A stretch of 12,837 nt of DNA from a virus (taxonomy: Duplodnaviria; Heunggongvirae; Uroviricota; Caudoviricetes): the IMG/VR virus record IMGVR_UViG_643692022_000004; one strand, 5' to 3'. The notes beneath the pieces were generated by a model. The model worked only from the letters and a program-made list of their open reading frames with translations, was not told the DNA's origin and made no database searches. Made by a program: the position numbers and the translations under genes. Numbering within the stretch: position 1 is the stretch's first letter; the number at the start of each line of letters is the position of its first letter. Positions 1 through 12,798 of the stretch are shown here, piece by piece.

Positions 1-243
1 TCACTCACTTACCAGCCAGAATTCCGCTTCTTCGAACATTTCCTGAACGACGGCACTTATCCGCTCTTTCTCATGTTTGCTGGCATCCGTGTTAATCGCT
101 GGCAGTGTCATCATCGGTTTAACCCGGACATCTGCATCCGGGAAGATCCGGTGCACTCTCTTACTCAGTTCATCTAAAATGATCTCTTTTGCACCAGGCA
201 GACCATCAAAATTCCTTTTGTCATAAACGAGTTCCACGAACAT
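1..243 (-). CDS. DinI-family DNA-damage-inducible protein (80 aa)
   Basis: Complete minus-strand ORF: ATG at 243-241, TGA at 3-1, AAGAGG-like RBS about 7 nt upstream. The C-terminal half (ELSKRVHRIFPDADVRV...KERISAVVQEMFEEAEFWLVSE) resembles E. coli DinI as I recall it (…ELSRRIQYAFPD…KQRISEILQETWESADDWFVSE). Two LexA-box-like palindromes lie immediately upstream. Confidence 0.7.
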   Translation of the reverse strand: MFVELVYDKRNFDGLPGAKEIILDELSKRVHRIFPDADVRVKPMMTLPAINTDASKHEKERISAVVQEMFEEAEFWLVSE

Positions 244-4219: not shown

Positions 4220-4354
4220 TTGTTTTCCTCCCTGTGACAGATGACTGCATTCCGTGCCGGTTGCATTAACTGATAAGGCATATCTGCGTCTCCTGAAGAC
4301 GTGCGTATCCCTGCGCGAATACGCACATTTAATTTTTCGGGTGTCGTTTTTTAA

Positions 4355-4810
4355 TTACAGATAATTGCGGTAACTGTTATCCGGGGTGATTTCCGGGTCA
4401 GGCTCCGTGCGGGGAATTTCCCGCCATTCCCGCGCCACCGGTGCCGCCCGGCTGACCGGAACAGGGTCCTGCGGGTAAATATCCAGATATTTCTCCCGCC
4501 ATTTCTGTAATTCCGGGTCTCCGGCCATTTCTTTCAGTACCGCATGCCGGTTTACGGGGCTGCGTTTAAACAGGTCAGGACGGTCACAGGTAAATTCCCG
4601 CAGAAAACGCCCCAGCGGGATGTCTGTGGTGCGCCCGTCAGCGAGGATACGCACAAGGATACTGAATTTACGGCGGTACGGGTTCCAGACAATGTCCGGG
4701 CAGCGGTACGGCATTTCCCACGGAATACCGTCTTCCAGAATGCCGACCACGGCCACATCGGGAAAACCGGCAGAACGGTAAATCTCACCAGGCTGGGGAA
4801 AATCAAACAT
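4355..4810 (-). CDS. P4 orf151-like hypothetical protein (151 aa)
   Basis: ORF of the length and position of P4 orf151; its ATG (4810-4808) overlaps the epsilon stop (4803-4805), suggesting translational coupling. Confidence 0.7.
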   Translation of the reverse strand: MFDFPQPGEIYRSAGFPDVAVVGILEDGIPWEMPYRCPDIVWNPYRRKFSILVRILADGRTTDIPLGRFLREFTCDRPDLFKRSPVNRHAVLKEMAGDPELQKWREKYLDIYPQDPVPVSRAAPVAREWREIPRTEPDPEITPDNSYRNYL

Positions 4811-5090
4811 GCGTCCTGTCTCCCCGGTCTTTCTGCTGGGCGAGAAAATCGCGGCACAGGCCTTTGGCTTTCAGCTCATTCAGCACAAAATCAATATCTT
4901 CATTCAGGTAGCTGAAAATATGCGGAATGTAGAGCTGATGCAGGCCGGAGAGTTCACGGTGAATCAAATCACCCCCAACAAACTGGGATACGGCGCTGGC
5001 GCGGTTGAGCTTATGGTAAGCCTCAATGCTGAGGTGTTCACGGGCGTCATGACGCGCTGAGACGGTCTGAGGGGCTTTTTTATTACGCAC
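4803..5090 (-). CDS. epsilon: Epsilon-like protein (95 aa; P4 anti-repressor that derepresses the helper prophage)
   Basis: Position immediately downstream of the immunity region and upstream of orf151/alpha, as in P4. The start appears to be GTG (5090-5088) preceded by a G-rich RBS. Identity rests on synteny and size, not on a recalled sequence. Confidence 0.6.
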
Positions 5091-5283
5091 GGGACACCCC
5101 CATCACTGGCAGACGGGCAGCAAGGGAGAGCACATAGTCACGGACAAGGGAACGGCGGGCGCTGCGTTCATCACCGGCGACGGTGCGAAGCATGCAGATA
5201 CGGGGATGACGGTCTGCGCGACGGACAGCCGCAAACACAAAGACAAATTCAGGGTGTGAAGGGGTAAGGGTTGTAGCCATGAT

Positions 5284-5402
5284 GGCAGCCTCCGTTAGAT
5301 AGCAGGTTACGCTATCGCCGGAGTTTCCACGCTCGATGGCGATAGCCCAGACGGGGGTGGAAATACCGGCTCTAACGGATACCGGCCAGCCCGGAGGCTG
5401 CC
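5284..5402 (-). ncRNA. Candidate CI-like immunity RNA (structured RNA in the P4 immunity region)
   Basis: Perfect 11-bp long-range inverted repeat ggcagcctccg (5284-5294) / cggaggctgcc (5392-5402) enclosing a perfect 9-bp hairpin gctatcgcc (5311-5319) / ggcgatagc (5338-5346). The locus lies between vis and epsilon where P4 encodes the CI RNA. Exact ends are uncertain. Confidence 0.3.
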
Positions 5403-5528
5403 CCGCCTGAGCTACCATTGACTCTGCGGCATAATGAGCGGACGCGGGCAGGATGCACGGAGTGCCATCTGCTCGACTGACCACACACCACACCATAATC
5501 TGGCGCTCTGTGGCGTTGATTGCGACAC

Positions 5529-5550
5529 AAAAAAAGACGCATGGCGCGTC
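5529..5550 (-). terminator. Candidate attenuator/terminator hairpin in the leader between the early promoter and the CI-like RNA
   Basis: On the minus strand the stem GACGC/GCGTC (5546-5550 / 5536-5540) with loop GCCAT is followed by a 7-T run (5529-5535). The stem is short, so the call is weak. Confidence 0.35.
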
Positions 5551-5613
5551 ATATGTCGCCGTTAGATTGCTCGGGTTTCCACGCCCGGCTGCCGATTTTG
5601 CGACAGCGGAAAA

Positions 5614-5643
5614 ACTATATCCGCAAATGCCGGAAAAAGGCAA
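5614..5643 (-). promoter_or_regulatory. Candidate sigma70 promoter (PLE-like) downstream of vis
   Basis: On the minus strand TTGCCT (5643-5638), an 18-bp spacer, then TATAGT (5619-5614), directed toward the immunity region and epsilon. Hexamer match by eye only. Confidence 0.25.
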
Positions 5644-5678
5644 GCCAGAAAAAGGGAGTTTTTGCAGAGCGGGCATCA

Positions 5679-5945
5679 TCATGCGTCGTACCCCCGTTTG
5701 CGTCCGGCAATGCGCCCGGCCATCCATGCGGTGACTTCAGAGTGCAGCCAGGCCACATTTTTACCGCCAAGACTCACCTGCGGCGGAAATTCCCCCTTAC
5801 GGATGAGTTCATAGATGGTCGAGCGTGACAGGCCGCACAGGTGCATCACTTCCGGAAGACGTAAAAAACGCTCCTGTGTGATGTCCGGCAGCGGCATCAG
5901 TGGCGTCACAGGGGCGGGAGACGGGGAAGAAAAAACAGCTTGCAT
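5679..5945 (-). CDS. vis: Vis-like excisionase/transcriptional regulator (88 aa; AlpA/Xis-type helix-turn-helix)
   Basis: 88-aa ORF with a GAGG RBS. Contains the AlpA/Vis-type motif [45 protein letters not shown]. Same size and position as P4 orf88 (vis) between the late promoter region and the immunity region. Confidence 0.8.
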
Positions 5946-6426: not shown

Positions 6427-6498
6427 TCTGCAATGCGTCGTGTTGTTGTCCGGTGTACGTCACAATTTTCTCAACCTGAAGTGACGAGGAGCCGGAAA

Positions 6499-7233
6499 AT
6501 GTCTGACAACACCATCCCTGAATATCTGCAACCCGCACTGGCACAACTGGAAAAGGCCAGAGCCGCCCACCTTGAGAACGCCCGACTGATGGATGAGACC
6601 GTCACGGCCATTGAACGGGCAGAGCAGGAAAAAAATGCGCTGGCGCAGGCCGACGGAAACGACGCTGACGACTGGCGCACGGCCTTTCGTGCAGCCGGTG
6701 GTGTCCTGAGCGACGAGCTGAAACAGCGCCACATTGAGCGCGTGGCACGCCGGGAGCTGGTACAGGAATATGACAATCTGGCCGTGGTGCTGAATTTCGA
6801 ACGTGAACGCCTGAAAGGGGCGTGTGACAGCACGGCCACCGCCTACCGGAAGGCACATCATCACCTTCTGAGTCTGTATGCAGAGCATGAGCTGGAACAC
6901 GCCCTGAATGAAACCTGTGAGGCGCTTGTCCGGGCAATGCATCTGAGCATTCTGGTACAGGAAAATCCGCTCGCCAACACCACCGGCCATCAGGGCTACG
7001 TCGCACCGGAAAAGGCTGTCATGCAGCAGGTGAAATCATCGCTGGAACAGAAAATTAAACAGATGCAAATCAGCCTCACCGGCGAGCCGGTTCTCCGGCT
7101 GACCGGACTGTCAGCGGCAACACTTCCTCACATGGATTATGAGGTGGCAGGCACACCGGCACAGCGCAAGGTGTGGCAGGACAAAATAGACCAGCAGGGA
7201 GCAGTGCTTAAGGCCAGAGGACTGCTGTCATGA
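6499..7233 (+). CDS. sid: Sid-like capsid size determination (external scaffold) protein (244 aa)
   Basis: ATG at 6499 preceded by AGGAG (6486-6490); the track ORF begins 66 nt further upstream but lacks an RBS. The product starts MSDNTIPEYL and is 244 aa, the recalled length of P4 Sid. First gene of the sid-delta-psu operon. Confidence 0.85.
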   Translation: MSDNTIPEYLQPALAQLEKARAAHLENARLMDETVTAIERAEQEKNALAQADGNDADDWRTAFRAAGGVLSDELKQRHIERVARRELVQEYDNLAVVLNFERERLKGACDSTATAYRKAHHHLLSLYAEHELEHALNETCEALVRAMHLSILVQENPLANTTGHQGYVAPEKAVMQQVKSSLEQKIKQMQISLTGEPVLRLTGLSAATLPHMDYEVAGTPAQRKVWQDKIDQQGAVLKARGLLS

Positions 7234-8575: not shown

Positions 8576-11026
8576 TTATTGTTTTGCACTTAAAATATTA
8601 TCAACAACTCGTTTCACACTTTCGAAAGATGACTCTCCTGTTTTAAAAGATTCGTTCATGTCAAAATAACTAGGTTTATTTACAAAACTACTCCAAGCAT
8701 TTGACAGGTAATCTTTGAATGCAATGGAGCGTTTATATCGATCCTCAATATTGAATGACTCACATGAAGCTCGCATATTATTGACTACTTCAGGATTAAA
8801 TATAGGAGTGTCAAATACCATTGCATCAAGATAGGCGAAATCACTTATCCATCGCTTGAGATGATACAAACCAATAGATGTGATTCTAAATTTCGTTGGC
8901 ATTTCTCCTATTAAACCTGTTTCGTCCTCTTCAAATGTAAACCTCTGTGAGGTCTCTATTAATTTTTTGTTTGTCGTTCTTCTTAGCGCATTTTCAGTCT
9001 GCTCAGGAATAAAACCAAGGCTTTGCATTTCATCTATAATGGACTTGGTTAGACAGAATCCATCCCGGTCCTGAAGCTCTTTTTTTTCTGATAATAGCGC
9101 CATTATTAATGGTACTAAAAAGTGTTCTGATATATCTGCAAAAGAAACATCAAAAATATTCATGGCAAGAGATGTGTTTGGATCAAAGTGTGAATATTCA
9201 CCAAGTAAAGCTTGTTTAGAAAATTCATGTACAGGAATTATATATCTACCTTCTTCTTCGTAAGTTCGAATTATTTTATCCGCTTCAACATTTGGGCTGC
9301 CTATAAAACCAGTAATAAAGCTAAGCGCTTGTCTTACATTGCCTCCCGTAATGTTTTCAATAAACTCTCCTAGTGATTTATTTTTTCTTAGAGATTGAAG
9401 CAATACTCTGATAAATGAAGAAAGATTGTCTATATGGATTCTAACAAATTCGGCATGTTCAAGAGGTATCTTTCCTTCAGACATTTCGAGAGCAAACTGA
9501 AGTCGTTTATCAAGAACTTGATCTATCCTTGGTGGTGCAATTGTAAAGACCTTGTGGGGATAAGCAGTTAATGCACCTGATGCTTTTGATTTAAAGAATG
9601 TCTGAGGTCTGACAGATATAAATACTAAAGCATTCCAATCTTTTGCTAACTCCTGAGAAATAACAAATGCTCGCTGTTGCGTTTCGAAATCTCGTTGATC
9701 AGCATTATCTAGACAAATAATTACTTGCTTTTTAGTTTGTTTTGATAAATGAGCGATTGAGTTTTTTAAATGTTCATCTTTAGCATCTAATTTTTCCGCC
9801 AACATCTCAAGTTGTTTTTCCTCATATCGTTCTCTATTTGAATCTCGTAAACTCCCCCAGATTCCTTTTGAAAACCTTTGAATATCTCTTGAATATACGC
9901 CTTTAACAAATTTCATTTCGGTTATATCACAGGAGTATTTATTGTCTAGTTGTTGCTCTATCTCATTTAATATAAATTTTTGAAGATTATTAGCTAATGT
10001 TGCTTTAGAGCCTAAATCTATATATAAATAAATTGCCTCTTTAAATTCTTTGAATGCACTTGAATAAATTAAATTTTTTACAAATGACGTTTTACCAACA
10101 CCAACATCACCAATTAATACAATTGGACGCTTTGATAGAGCCTCGGCCATAATACTTGGATCTAAAGTTTGCTCTTTACGATCAGGTTTAACAGAAGTTA
10201 TATGTGGAGATAATTCATTGTCACTAAATAGAGCAGCATATCTGGCTTGAAGCATTTCTTTACTTAGCAAAGCATATTTTGAAAGGGCACCACTTTCGCA
10301 GTAGCATTTTTGGTAAAAAATCTCTTCAATTTCATTGCTTTCAAGAGCATCTTGAATTATTAATTCTGATATTTGTCTTAATGAGGTCTGTATATCACTA
10401 GCATAGCGTATTTTAGGATACATTGATAAATAGGTTGATAATTTATTTGGAATACCACTTATGTCAGAGGTAAGATACTTAATTAAACGTTGTTCTTTCA
10501 CACCGTAATATGAAAGCATATTCCATGCTAAAGAAAAGTTCCGTAATAAAGAATCCAAACTGTCAAAAACTAAAGCTTTTCCCTCTAAAGGCGAACAGCC
10601 ATTTTGAGTGCTTGCAATAAATGATATAAATTGATGTCCATTAGTGGCTATTGCAATTGGTGTTCCTCGTGATGAACAATATTTTTGTACCTGTATAATT
10701 GCGTCTTTTAAATCGTCATTTGATCTTAAGAGAGTTGGTATGTCGATTATGTTCTTATTTGATAAACCTGCTGGTATTTCAAAAGTCCGGCCTTCTCTTT
10801 TCGCTTCAACAATAACTTGCCGTGGCTTTCCTAATTCATAATCTGTAAAAGTATGATCATGATAGTTTTCAACTTCTATTTGATCATCAGGCCAGCTAAG
10901 AACGTCAATAATTATTTTGTTTATTATATGATGCCTAGTCTGGGCTTCATTTCTTATCTTGGCGCTGTCACTATATTCGTTTACTAATTCTCTTAATAAA
11001 TTTTCGGCTTGTATCATTGTAACCAT
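8576..11026 (-). CDS. Candidate anti-phage defence protein: N-terminal PD-(D/E)xK nuclease (HsdR-N/Mrr-like) fused to a P-loop NTPase with a C-terminal domain of unknown function (816 aa)
   Basis: Uninterrupted 816-codon ORF, ATG at 11026 with GGAGAG RBS 7 nt upstream. Residues ~26-76: NEAQTRHHIINKII...IEVE...DYEL...VIVEAKREG, the E/D/ExK pattern of HsdR-N/Mrr-type nucleases. Walker A GDVGVGKTS (~306-314), extended Walker B VIICLDNADQ (~435-444), and GGNVRQAL (~561-568) resembling an AAA+/STAND sensor motif. No SF2 helicase motifs. Sits in the P4 psu/cos-int slot; strongly AT-rich against a GC-rich backbone. Confidence 0.85.
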   Translation of the reverse strand: MVTMIQAENLLRELVNEYSDSAKIRNEAQTRHHIINKIIIDVLSWPDDQIEVENYHDHTFTDYELGKPRQVIVEAKREGRTFEIPAGLSNKNIIDIPTLLRSNDDLKDAIIQVQKYCSSRGTPIAIATNGHQFISFIASTQNGCSPLEGKALVFDSLDSLLRNFSLAWNMLSYYGVKEQRLIKYLTSDISGIPNKLSTYLSMYPKIRYASDIQTSLRQISELIIQDALESNEIEEIFYQKCYCESGALSKYALLSKEMLQARYAALFSDNELSPHITSVKPDRKEQTLDPSIMAEALSKRPIVLIGDVGVGKTSFVKNLIYSSAFKEFKEAIYLYIDLGSKATLANNLQKFILNEIEQQLDNKYSCDITEMKFVKGVYSRDIQRFSKGIWGSLRDSNRERYEEKQLEMLAEKLDAKDEHLKNSIAHLSKQTKKQVIICLDNADQRDFETQQRAFVISQELAKDWNALVFISVRPQTFFKSKASGALTAYPHKVFTIAPPRIDQVLDKRLQFALEMSEGKIPLEHAEFVRIHIDNLSSFIRVLLQSLRKNKSLGEFIENITGGNVRQALSFITGFIGSPNVEADKIIRTYEEEGRYIIPVHEFSKQALLGEYSHFDPNTSLAMNIFDVSFADISEHFLVPLIMALLSEKKELQDRDGFCLTKSIIDEMQSLGFIPEQTENALRRTTNKKLIETSQRFTFEEDETGLIGEMPTKFRITSIGLYHLKRWISDFAYLDAMVFDTPIFNPEVVNNMRASCESFNIEDRYKRSIAFKDYLSNAWSSFVNKPSYFDMNESFKTGESSFESVKRVVDNILSAKQ

Positions 11027-11049: not shown

Positions 11050-12249
11050 TTAAAAGGATAAAGATTTATGAACAAAAGAACTCCACCAGTTCATTAAATT
11101 CTTCCTTTGTTCTAAGTAAGTAGAACGGTTATAAGCTTTTCTGACTTCATTCTTATCGCTATGAGCTAAGGCTGATTCTATTACATCAGCGTTAAATTCG
11201 GCTTCATTCATTGCAGTGCTGGCAATAGAACGTAAACCATGAGCAACGAGTTTTCCACCATATCCTATCCTTTTTAAAGCGGCATTTGCAGTTTGGCTAT
11301 TCATGGGTTTTTGTGGATCATTTCTACTTGGGAAAACATACTCACGATGAGCACTAATAGTTTTCATAACTTCAAGAATATCTAAAGCCTTAGGTGATAA
11401 AGGTACAATATGTTCGCGCTTAGCTTTCATCCTTTCAGCAGGAATTCTCCAGAGTTTTGCATCAAAATCGATCTCCTTCCATTGAGTGCCTGAAGCCTCT
11501 GAAGGGCGCACAAGGGTGAGTAGTTGCCATTCAATCAGACAACGGGTCTGCACAGAAAGATTTGACATAGATAAAGAATACATAAGTTTCGGTAATTCTT
11601 CAGGTCGTAGTGTTGGCATGTTTTTCTTTTTAGGTTTCTCAAATGCCATACCAATACCTGATGCAGGATTAGCGTCAATTAAGCCAGTATTAACGGCATA
11701 AATCATAATTTCATTAATACGTTGTACCAAACGACGAACAGTTTCAAGTGCTCCACGAGCTTTAATTGGTTCTAAGGTTTCAATTAATGTACGAGCTTTT
11801 ATTTTCTGAACAGGAATTTCACCGATAGTAGGGAAAATATCTCTCTCTAAGGAGCGCCATACATCCTTTGCGTAATCAGGTGTTACGTTGTTTCTTTTTA
11901 TGGCAAACCATTTTGAGGCAACGTTTGAAAAAATACTATCTTCCGCAATCTGTTGCTGTACAGTGACTTGCTCACTGTATATCTGTGGATCAATACCTCG
12001 GGCCAGCAAGGAAAGATACTCAGCACGAGTGTTTCTGGCTTCAGCCAGAGAAAGGGCAGGGAAAGACCCTAAACCAATCATGGTTCGTTGTTTTGTTACT
12101 GGTTTCTGGTATCGGAAACGCCACAGCTTCCTACCGTTCGTTTTTACGAGTAGAAAAAGTCCATTACCATCATGTAGCGTTAGATCCTTTGCAGTTGCTT
12201 TAGCCCGTGATAGTTCAGTGTTAGTAAGAGGGCGTGTTGTACGTGACAC
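11050..12249 (-). CDS. int: Tyrosine integrase (P4-family, 399 aa), ssrA-specific
   Basis: N-terminus typical of P4-family integrases (...RPLTNTELSRAKA...LHDGNGLFLLVKTNGRKLWRFRY...), C-terminal catalytic region with HGLR and a tyrosine in KAYNRSTY. Apparent GTG start at 12249 with a GAGGT RBS. Directly adjacent to the ssrA 3' end. Confidence 0.9.
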   Translation of the reverse strand: MSRTTRPLTNTELSRAKATAKDLTLHDGNGLFLLVKTNGRKLWRFRYQKPVTKQRTMIGLGSFPALSLAEARNTRAEYLSLLARGIDPQIYSEQVTVQQQIAEDSIFSNVASKWFAIKRNNVTPDYAKDVWRSLERDIFPTIGEIPVQKIKARTLIETLEPIKARGALETVRRLVQRINEIMIYAVNTGLIDANPASGIGMAFEKPKKKNMPTLRPEELPKLMYSLSMSNLSVQTRCLIEWQLLTLVRPSEASGTQWKEIDFDAKLWRIPAERMKAKREHIVPLSPKALDILEVMKTISAHREYVFPSRNDPQKPMNSQTANAALKRIGYGGKLVAHGLRSIASTAMNEAEFNADVIESALAHSDKNEVRKAYNRSTYLEQRKNLMNWWSSFVHKSLSF

Positions 12250-12271
12250 GATTATCCTACCTCAGAGAGAA

Positions 12272-12323
12272 TTGGTATACGCTTTTAGGTATACATCTTA
12301 CCGTATACCTAAACGTATACCAA
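12272..12323. promoter_or_regulatory. Cluster of four arm-type integrase-binding-like repeats between int and the att core
   Basis: ttggtatacg (12272-12281), aggtatac (12287-12294), cgtatacct (12302-12310), cgtataccaa (12314-12323): two motifs in inverted then direct orientation, and the same pair recurs at 1120-1141. Overlaps the expected int promoter. Confidence 0.4.
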
Positions 12324-12367
12324 TAATCACTGGATTTAGCGGGATATTCTCGGACAACTGCGGACAC

Positions 12368-12386
12368 AAAAAAGCCCACAGGGCTT
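12368..12386 (-). terminator. Rho-independent terminator downstream of ssrA, supplied by the element
   Basis: On the minus strand AGCCC-tgt-GGGCT is followed by a 6-T run (12368-12373), about 50 nt beyond the tmRNA 3' CCA end. Confidence 0.5.
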
Positions 12387-12435
12387 GTGCCATGCGGGCT
12401 TTCAGGATTTTTCCGGACATATCCGGAAGAGCAAG

Positions 12436-12798
12436 TGGTGGAGCTGGCGGGAGTTGAACCCGCGTCCGAAATTCCTACATCCTCGGTACTACATGCTTAG
12501 TCAGTCTTTACATTCGCTTGCCAGCTGCGGACGGACACGCCACTAACAAACTAGCCTGATTAAGTTTTAACGCTTCAACCCCAGGCAGGGCTTCCACGCG
12601 ATCTCTTTTGGGTTTGACCTCTCTTGATCCCCGTCCTAAGAGCGGAGGCTAGGGAGAGAGGGCTCTAAGCAGGTTATTAAGCTGCTAAAGCGTAGTTTTC
12701 GTCGTTTGCGACTATTTTTTGCGGCTTTTTACGAGGCCAACCGCCCCTCGGCATGCACCTTGGGTTTCGCAAATCCCGTCGAATCCAGAATCAGCCCC
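12436..12798 (-). ncRNA. ssrA: tmRNA (transfer-messenger RNA)
   Basis: Reverse complement begins GGGGCTGATTCTGGATTCGACGGG and ends ...GGTTCAACTCCCGCCAGCTCCACCA; contains the tag reading frame GCAAACGACGAAAACTACGCTTTAGCAGCTTAA (ANDENYALAA). 363 nt, matching E. coli ssrA as recalled. Confidence 0.95.

Follow-up and report, generated by a model that had tools for sequence, protein, structure and literature searches.

Two genes in one stretch of viral DNA, epsilon for a helper derepression protein and int for an integrase, open with GTG, which raises the question of whether these codons are the true starts of translation and what they would mean for expression. The stretch, hereafter the window, is 12,837 nucleotides (12.8 kb) long (IMG/VR record IMGVR_UViG_643692022_000004) and, judging from its gene order and flanks, carries a P4-like satellite prophage whose integration site is the tmRNA gene, ssrA. 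Its left-operon region (4300-5800) matches P4 with 97.3% identity over 1.5 kb, and the gene order is that of P4 (alpha, orf106/cnr, orf151, epsilon, an Ash/Icd-like ORF and vis/alpA, followed by sid, delta and psu), with epsilon in the slot between the Ash/Icd-like ORF and orf151-cnr-alpha, as in the P4 left operon.

Two GTG codons in start position

A sequence-only reading of the window had proposed that epsilon and int each start with GTG behind a plausible ribosome-binding sequence and that such starts keep their expression low. The sequence and the ORF list place both codons exactly where that reading had put them on the minus strand (5090-5088 and 12249-12247), and the Shine-Dalgarno-like sequences that it had noticed are present upstream. 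Their predicted pairing with the 16S rRNA 3′ end, -9.7 kcal/mol for GGGGG of epsilon and -8.3 kcal/mol for GAGGTAGGA of int, lies in the normal range of the window, where the nine ATG genes span -0.5 to -11.1 kcal/mol; GGGGG is a weaker variant of the motif than GGAGG. The gene names also hold: epsilon matches its Pfam family over its full length and the P4 gene at 99% DNA identity, and int encodes a tyrosine integrase, though one of the IntA/CP4-57 type that targets ssrA and is not close to P4 Int. The features around epsilon are as follows.

5088-5090, minus strand: GTG start codon of epsilon, followed by CGT AAT AAA AAA GCC (M R N K K A...)
4803-5090, minus strand: epsilon, 95 aa, helper derepression protein (ORF list; Pfam PF25738; PGAP WP_001244665.1)
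5097-5101, minus strand: Shine-Dalgarno-like GGGGG, 6 nt ahead of the GTG; GGAGG in P4 and most relatives
5103-5105, minus strand: in-frame TGA five codons upstream of the GTG, created by a GTGATGG variant
5083-5727, minus strand: Ash/Icd-like (eta/kil-type) ORF upstream of epsilon, 214 aa (Pfam Phage_ASH, PF10554; NCBIfam Icd-like)
5083-5085, minus strand: TAA stop of the Ash/Icd-like ORF, within epsilon codons 2-3 (8-nt overlap, GTGCGTAA)
4803-4810, minus strand: second 8-nt overlap, ATGTTTGA, the orf151 ATG (4810-4808) lying over the epsilon TGA (4805-4803)
5335-5422, minus strand: C4 antisense RNA of the P4 CI immunity RNA type (Rfam, 76 bits), within the Ash/Icd-like ORF region upstream of epsilon
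5530-5607, minus strand: isrK Hfq-binding RNA (Rfam, 72.5 bits), also within that region

The Pfam family 'Derepression' (PF25738) aligned with epsilon from end to end (profile positions 1-95 with residues 1-95; E 7.7e-51; 170.3 bits, cut-off 27). In two E. coli genomes, PGAP likewise opens the gene at this GTG (288-nt CDS, WP_001244665.1), and the epsilon region occurs in 976 of 5,426 complete E. coli genomes; database starts of this kind come from gene callers and do not count as independent evidence for either GTG. The 101-nt region around the epsilon start folded no better than shuffled sequence (z = +0.72), which leaves a structural switch unsupported. The epsilon product was reportedly identified by Liu et al. 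in 1997; the general P4 papers that our searches turned up do not mention the start codon, and we found no solved epsilon structure. An anti-repressor role against the C repressor of the helper P2 is described from work on P4 (PMC8628076) and would extend to the window by analogy.

The Icd-like cell-division-inhibitor domain (NCBIfam) occupies the C-terminal approximately 50 residues of the ORF at 5083-5727, which we take to be eta/kil of the P4 literature. Phage_ASH (PF10554) matches this 214-aa upstream ORF and not epsilon, the epsilon family being PF25738. A survey of P4-like satellites (PMC8628076) gives PF10554 as the epsilon profile, and its 'epsilon' matches may therefore mark the neighbouring gene.

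The integrase gene and the ends of the element

For int and its surroundings, we recorded the following features.

12247-12249, minus strand: GTG start codon of int, followed by TCA CGT ACA ACA CGC CCT (M S R T T R P...)
11050-12249, minus strand: int, 399 aa, IntA/PRK09692 type, ssrA-specific (ORF list; Pfam; NCBIfam; PGAP WP_012599910.1)
12255-12263, minus strand: Shine-Dalgarno-like GAGGTAGGA, 5 nt ahead of the GTG; AAGGAG at this place in the sister lineage
12262-12264, minus strand: in-frame TGA five codons upstream of the GTG, with no start codon in between
12274-12321, no strand assigned: four GGTATAC repeats, two per orientation, 25-72 nt upstream of the int start
12436-12798, minus strand: ssrA (tmRNA), the integration target adjoining int (ARAGORN; Rfam RF00023, 295.8 bits)

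The integrase carries, in order, Arm-DNA-bind_3 (PF13356, residues 8-90), Phage_int_M (PF22022, residues 107-198) and Phage_integrase (PF00589, residues 213-378), and NCBIfam NF007246 (PRK09692) aligns residues 1-395 with profile positions 1-395 (583 bits, cut-off 434). The next start codon after the GTG is the ATG at codon 57, inside the arm DNA-binding domain, and initiation there would destroy that domain because it spans residues 8-90. By this domain layout, the GTG is the only int start that would keep the arm-binding domain. Residues 2-56 include the tryptic peptide TTRPLTNTELSR.

ssrA lies upstream of int at a distance of 187 nt. As is typical of this integrase family, the gene sits next to its tmRNA target, and part of the target 3′ end recurs, displaced, at the opposite end of the element: the ssrA 3′ end, GTTCAACTCCCGCCAGCTCCACCA (12436-12459), has an imperfect copy, TTCAAACTCCGCCAGC-CCACCA, at 1045-1066, approximately 11.4 kb away. 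Next to this copy comes another ssrA terminator, 82% identical to the first (954-1015 compared with 12356-12417). As read from these copies, 1045-1066 and 12436-12459 are the ends of the element. For CP4-57, a one-base-deleted ssrA allele (CGCCAGC-CCACCA) has been tabulated (PMC10107115), and excision here could likewise leave such an allele.

The heptamer GGTATAC occurs seven times in the window (0.67 expected); six of them are grouped directly inside the ends of the element, four ahead of int and a matching pair at the other end (1121-1139), and the repeats are conserved in related ssrA integrase loci. The grouped repeats are probably arm-type sites bound by Int, those at 12274-12321 lying in the leader or promoter region of int. 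The ssrA terminator copy at 12386-12372 separates ssrA from int, and a simple scan, which is weak evidence, found no sigma-70 consensus promoter on the coding strand between the two genes. The terminator copy, the lack of a recognizable promoter and the putative arm sites fit low expression of int.

Three further observations concern other parts of the window. An 816-aa ORF (8576-11026, minus strand) occupies the int-psu hotspot, where P4 carries gop, beta and cII. Its matches are all weak (AAA_22, E 2e-6; HSDR_N_2, E 0.023; PADLOC mad8, E 2.5e-4), with none in NCBIfam and no meaningful one in the PDB; we regard the gene as candidate anti-phage cargo and its product as an uncharacterised P-loop ATPase. 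The sid entry of the ORF list (6433-7233, plus strand) has 266 aa, compared with 244 aa in the P4 annotation; the ATG at 6499 (MSDNTIPEYL...), with GAGGAG upstream, is the likely sid start, and the first ATG is thus probably unused. Finally, a DinI-like ORF (1-243, minus strand; Pfam PF06183, E 8e-19) falls outside the satellite, past the displaced ssrA end, a position that suggests another mobile element or prophage remnant alongside it.

GTG replaces ATG in one clade of each gene

Alignment of homologous N-termini, which the sequence-only reading had named as a check, brought the N-termini into register at the GTG in both genes and so speaks for both starts. Epsilon homologues of 55-82% identity share the N-terminus M-x-N-K-N-x-P-Q-T-V-S-A-R, and residues 1-41 are conserved across genera, with S21, E23, K27, L28, N29 and R30 invariant. 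Outside the P4 clade, 24 loci have ATG at the homologous codon: 13 genome loci (Serratia, Buttiauxella, Rahnella, Scandinavium, Tenebrionibacter, Intestinirhabdus, Kluyvera, Citrobacter and more distant ones), 8 further loci encoding five homologues (Salmonella, Edwardsiella, Klebsiella and metagenomes) and 3 IMG/VR contigs of the 99-aa type. Among the 20 closer loci, GGAGG stands 6 nt upstream in 19 and GGGGG in the remaining one, and in all 20 the upstream stop overlaps the start, the overlap being 11 nt in three loci and 8 nt (RTGNNTAA) in the others. The four most distant loci (L022-L025) match only partially, from residue 19-20 onwards (residues 19-92), and have neither GGAGG nor a stop overlap; their start position is less certain. 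By contrast with the ATG loci, all 74 viral contigs with a 95-aa epsilon of the P4 type have GTG, and 10 of the 74 share the GTGATGG variant. The homologous DNA, with ATG in the sister loci and GTG in 74/74, indicates that the GTG is a derived character fixed in the P4-proper clade; by the same alignments, the position of the epsilon start is conserved across Enterobacterales.

A corresponding pattern was found for int. The GTG is invariant in the 23 clade loci examined, which represent 13 distinct start-region sequences from E. coli genomes (72-99.9% DNA identity) and viral contigs, and PGAP places the int start at this codon in an E. coli genome with 99.9% identity (WP_012599910.1) and gives four relatives GTG starts as well. 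Within P4-like viral contigs, members of the int clade have GTG in 13/13 cases and integrases of other clades have ATG at the homologous position in 27/28. ATG also stands at this position in a 67%-identical E. coli relative (L028), K-12 IntA and the HUSEC2011 integrase (M-A-R-x-T-K/R-P-L). Codons 2-8 retain A/S-R-T-T-R-P-L through synonymous changes (CGT/AGA/CGG; ACA/ACG/ACT; CCT/CCC; CTT/CTG/CTA), and over codons 2-41 of the 13 sequences the variable sites fall 9/7/34 on codon positions 1/2/3. As far as these alignments reach, GTG has replaced ATG at a conserved int start and is fixed throughout this clade. One match stands apart: the second integrase match of contig L046 (IMGVR_UViG_648276671_000013), of the P4 family, has Ile (…KTIIALTD…) in place of the ATG start of its relatives (…KTIMALTD…), and this copy may have lost its start codon or may be a pseudogene.

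The strongest competing explanation accepts both starts and holds that each GTG is a neutral A-to-G change fixed in its lineage, the epsilon change perhaps having hitch-hiked with a substitution in the upstream ORF. In that ORF, the same base is a codon position: the change that makes the epsilon GTG also converts His to Arg (CAT GCA TAA to CGT GCG TAA). Neutrality agrees with the restriction of GTG to one close-knit clade per gene, with sister clades keeping ATG, and with a frequency of GTG starts in the window in line with the genome-wide value of 14%. Against it, GUG generally initiates less well than AUG, and the int GTG has stayed invariant over 72-99.9% DNA identity despite many other changes. 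We consider neutrality a serious contender, at somewhat less than even odds; fixation of the epsilon change could reflect selection on either gene, or on neither.

Overlap of epsilon with its neighbours

The epsilon start lies within the last codons of the Ash/Icd-like ORF, a context absent from the sequence-only reading. In the window, P4 and most relatives, the upstream stop lies a few nucleotides from the epsilon start, with an 8-nt overlap, and the ATGTTTGA junction between epsilon and orf151 is kept in 8 further loci. Epsilon would be read from the GTG at 5090, 6 nt past a GGAGG-type motif that lies inside the upstream coding sequence. With the TAA only 5 nt after the first base of the epsilon start, ribosomes that finish the Ash/Icd-like ORF would be able to restart on epsilon, and at the second overlap those that finish epsilon would be able to reinitiate on orf151, the three genes forming a chain. 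It is because the overlap geometry is conserved that we infer such a chain, and with it translational coupling of epsilon. Coupling to the upstream ORF would be a more specific reading of the epsilon start than low expression through GTG. The integrase, by comparison, would be read from the GTG at 12249 behind its own Shine-Dalgarno motif.

Expression from the GTG starts

GTG starts are found in approximately 14% of E. coli genes (bioRxiv 10.1101/063800), and at this rate at least two GTG starts among the approximately 11 genes of the window are expected with P = 0.47, so that their co-occurrence is statistically unremarkable. In E. coli reporters, canonical non-AUG starts give 10-100% of the expression of AUG (bioRxiv 10.1101/063800), which makes some reduction by GTG likely in both epsilon and int. 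On general grounds, the drop in translation relative to ATG would be modest in both genes. By analogy with these reporters, the earlier suggestion that GTG keeps expression of epsilon and the integrase low is plausible.

The joint best explanation, to which we assign a probability of roughly 0.88 on comparative evidence, is that both GTG codons are true starts, each a lineage-specific swap of an ancestral ATG, with epsilon coupled to the upstream ORF and with modest down-tuning of both genes. A more ambitious, adaptive version would give each GTG a dedicated role: at epsilon, a weak GTG would tie synthesis almost entirely to ribosomes that finish the eta/kil-type ORF, and at int, a GTG behind arm-site repeats would keep the ssrA integrase very scarce. 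We judge this version improbable. If it were true, helper derepression would be linked to the immunity-controlled translation of the eta/kil-type ORF, and excision would rarely damage ssrA.

Both GTG starts are already known, epsilon in P4 records since the original sequencing and int in NCBI pipeline annotation; the additions made here, by comparison of loci, are the conserved geometry of epsilon coupling and the clade-specific replacement of ATG by GTG. The GTG starts matter little beyond annotation quality. Both starts are now backed comparatively, beyond the gene caller, by ATG in sister lineages, conserved Shine-Dalgarno motifs and codon-position periodicity. Since the upstream gene runs on past the epsilon start, those who clone epsilon or int should retain the GTG context or replace it deliberately.

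Other start sites

Besides codon 1, the epsilon frame contains only two start-type codons, a TTG (codon 42) and a GTG (codon 69), and none of its 95 codons is an in-frame ATG. A start at a downstream ATG, which the sequence-only reading had named as evidence that would speak against the GTG codons, is thus impossible in epsilon and is rejected in int, whose first ATG, codon 57, lies within the arm domain. Initiation of epsilon at TTG 42 or GTG 69, with the annotated GTG being just the first permissible codon, has in its favour that these two codons exist. It is very hard to reconcile with a Pfam match that begins at residue 1, with conservation of residues 1-41 across genera and with the 24 loci whose homologous codon 1 is ATG, mostly preceded by GGAGG, and we give it very little credence.

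Initiation of int at codon 57 is about equally improbable. That codon is the first ATG of the ORF, and a start there would lose most of the arm DNA-binding domain, while the third-position bias across codons 2-41 and homologues that align from residue 1 mark the preceding stretch as coding; we rejected this start on grounds of domain content and conservation.

The least probable alternative is a longer epsilon, made from an upstream start or by frameshift from the Ash/Icd-like ORF, in which the GTG would be an internal codon: in P4 and many relatives no stop interrupts the epsilon frame for tens of codons ahead of the GTG, and some database gene calls run to 102-156 aa, but a conserved start codon with GGAGG is hard to explain at an internal position, and the in-frame TGA five codons upstream, shared by the 10 of 74 P4-clade contigs, excludes an N-terminal extension in this window.

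Comparison with known systems

Epsilon of the window is close to its P4 counterpart (NC_001609 P4p09; X02534 CAA26379), with which it shares the GTG, the overlap of 8 nt with the upstream stop and the ATGTTTGA junction to orf151. The P4 records give a 95-aa epsilon from this GTG (X02534 2896-3183; NC_001609 7888-8175). The two differ in the Shine-Dalgarno motif, GGGGG in the window and GGAGG in P4, and in the GTGATGG variant, which creates the in-frame TGA. In P4, by contrast, the open frame of epsilon continues upstream and includes an ATG 15 codons ahead of the GTG, and a longer epsilon is therefore formally possible in P4 and not in this window.

The integration site of P4 int is a tRNA-Leu gene, unlike the ssrA site of the element described here. 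According to Piazzolla et al. in 2006, P4 int is reportedly controlled by binding of its own product, Int, and two start codons may be in use. P4 Int (NC_001609 P4p04, 440 aa) belongs to the same arm-type tyrosine integrase family and its gene lies in the same place beside the cargo hotspot, but it is only 36% identical to the integrase of the window, and the P4 record shows two ATG codons, at codons 1 and 5. K-12 IntA, the CP4-57 integrase, is closer: it aligns residue 1 to residue 1 with 59% identity, is also encoded beside ssrA and has the same three-domain architecture. It begins with ATG, whereas the int clade described here begins with GTG, and the host element here is a P4-type satellite and not CP4-57.

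The proposed coupling of epsilon resembles the known coupling of overlapping stop and start codons in bacterial and phage operons, in which the stop likewise lies near the start and the Shine-Dalgarno motif within the upstream coding sequence; the classic arrangements overlap by 4 nt (ATGA) or 1 nt (TAATG), whereas the epsilon overlap is 8 nt (RTGNNTAA).
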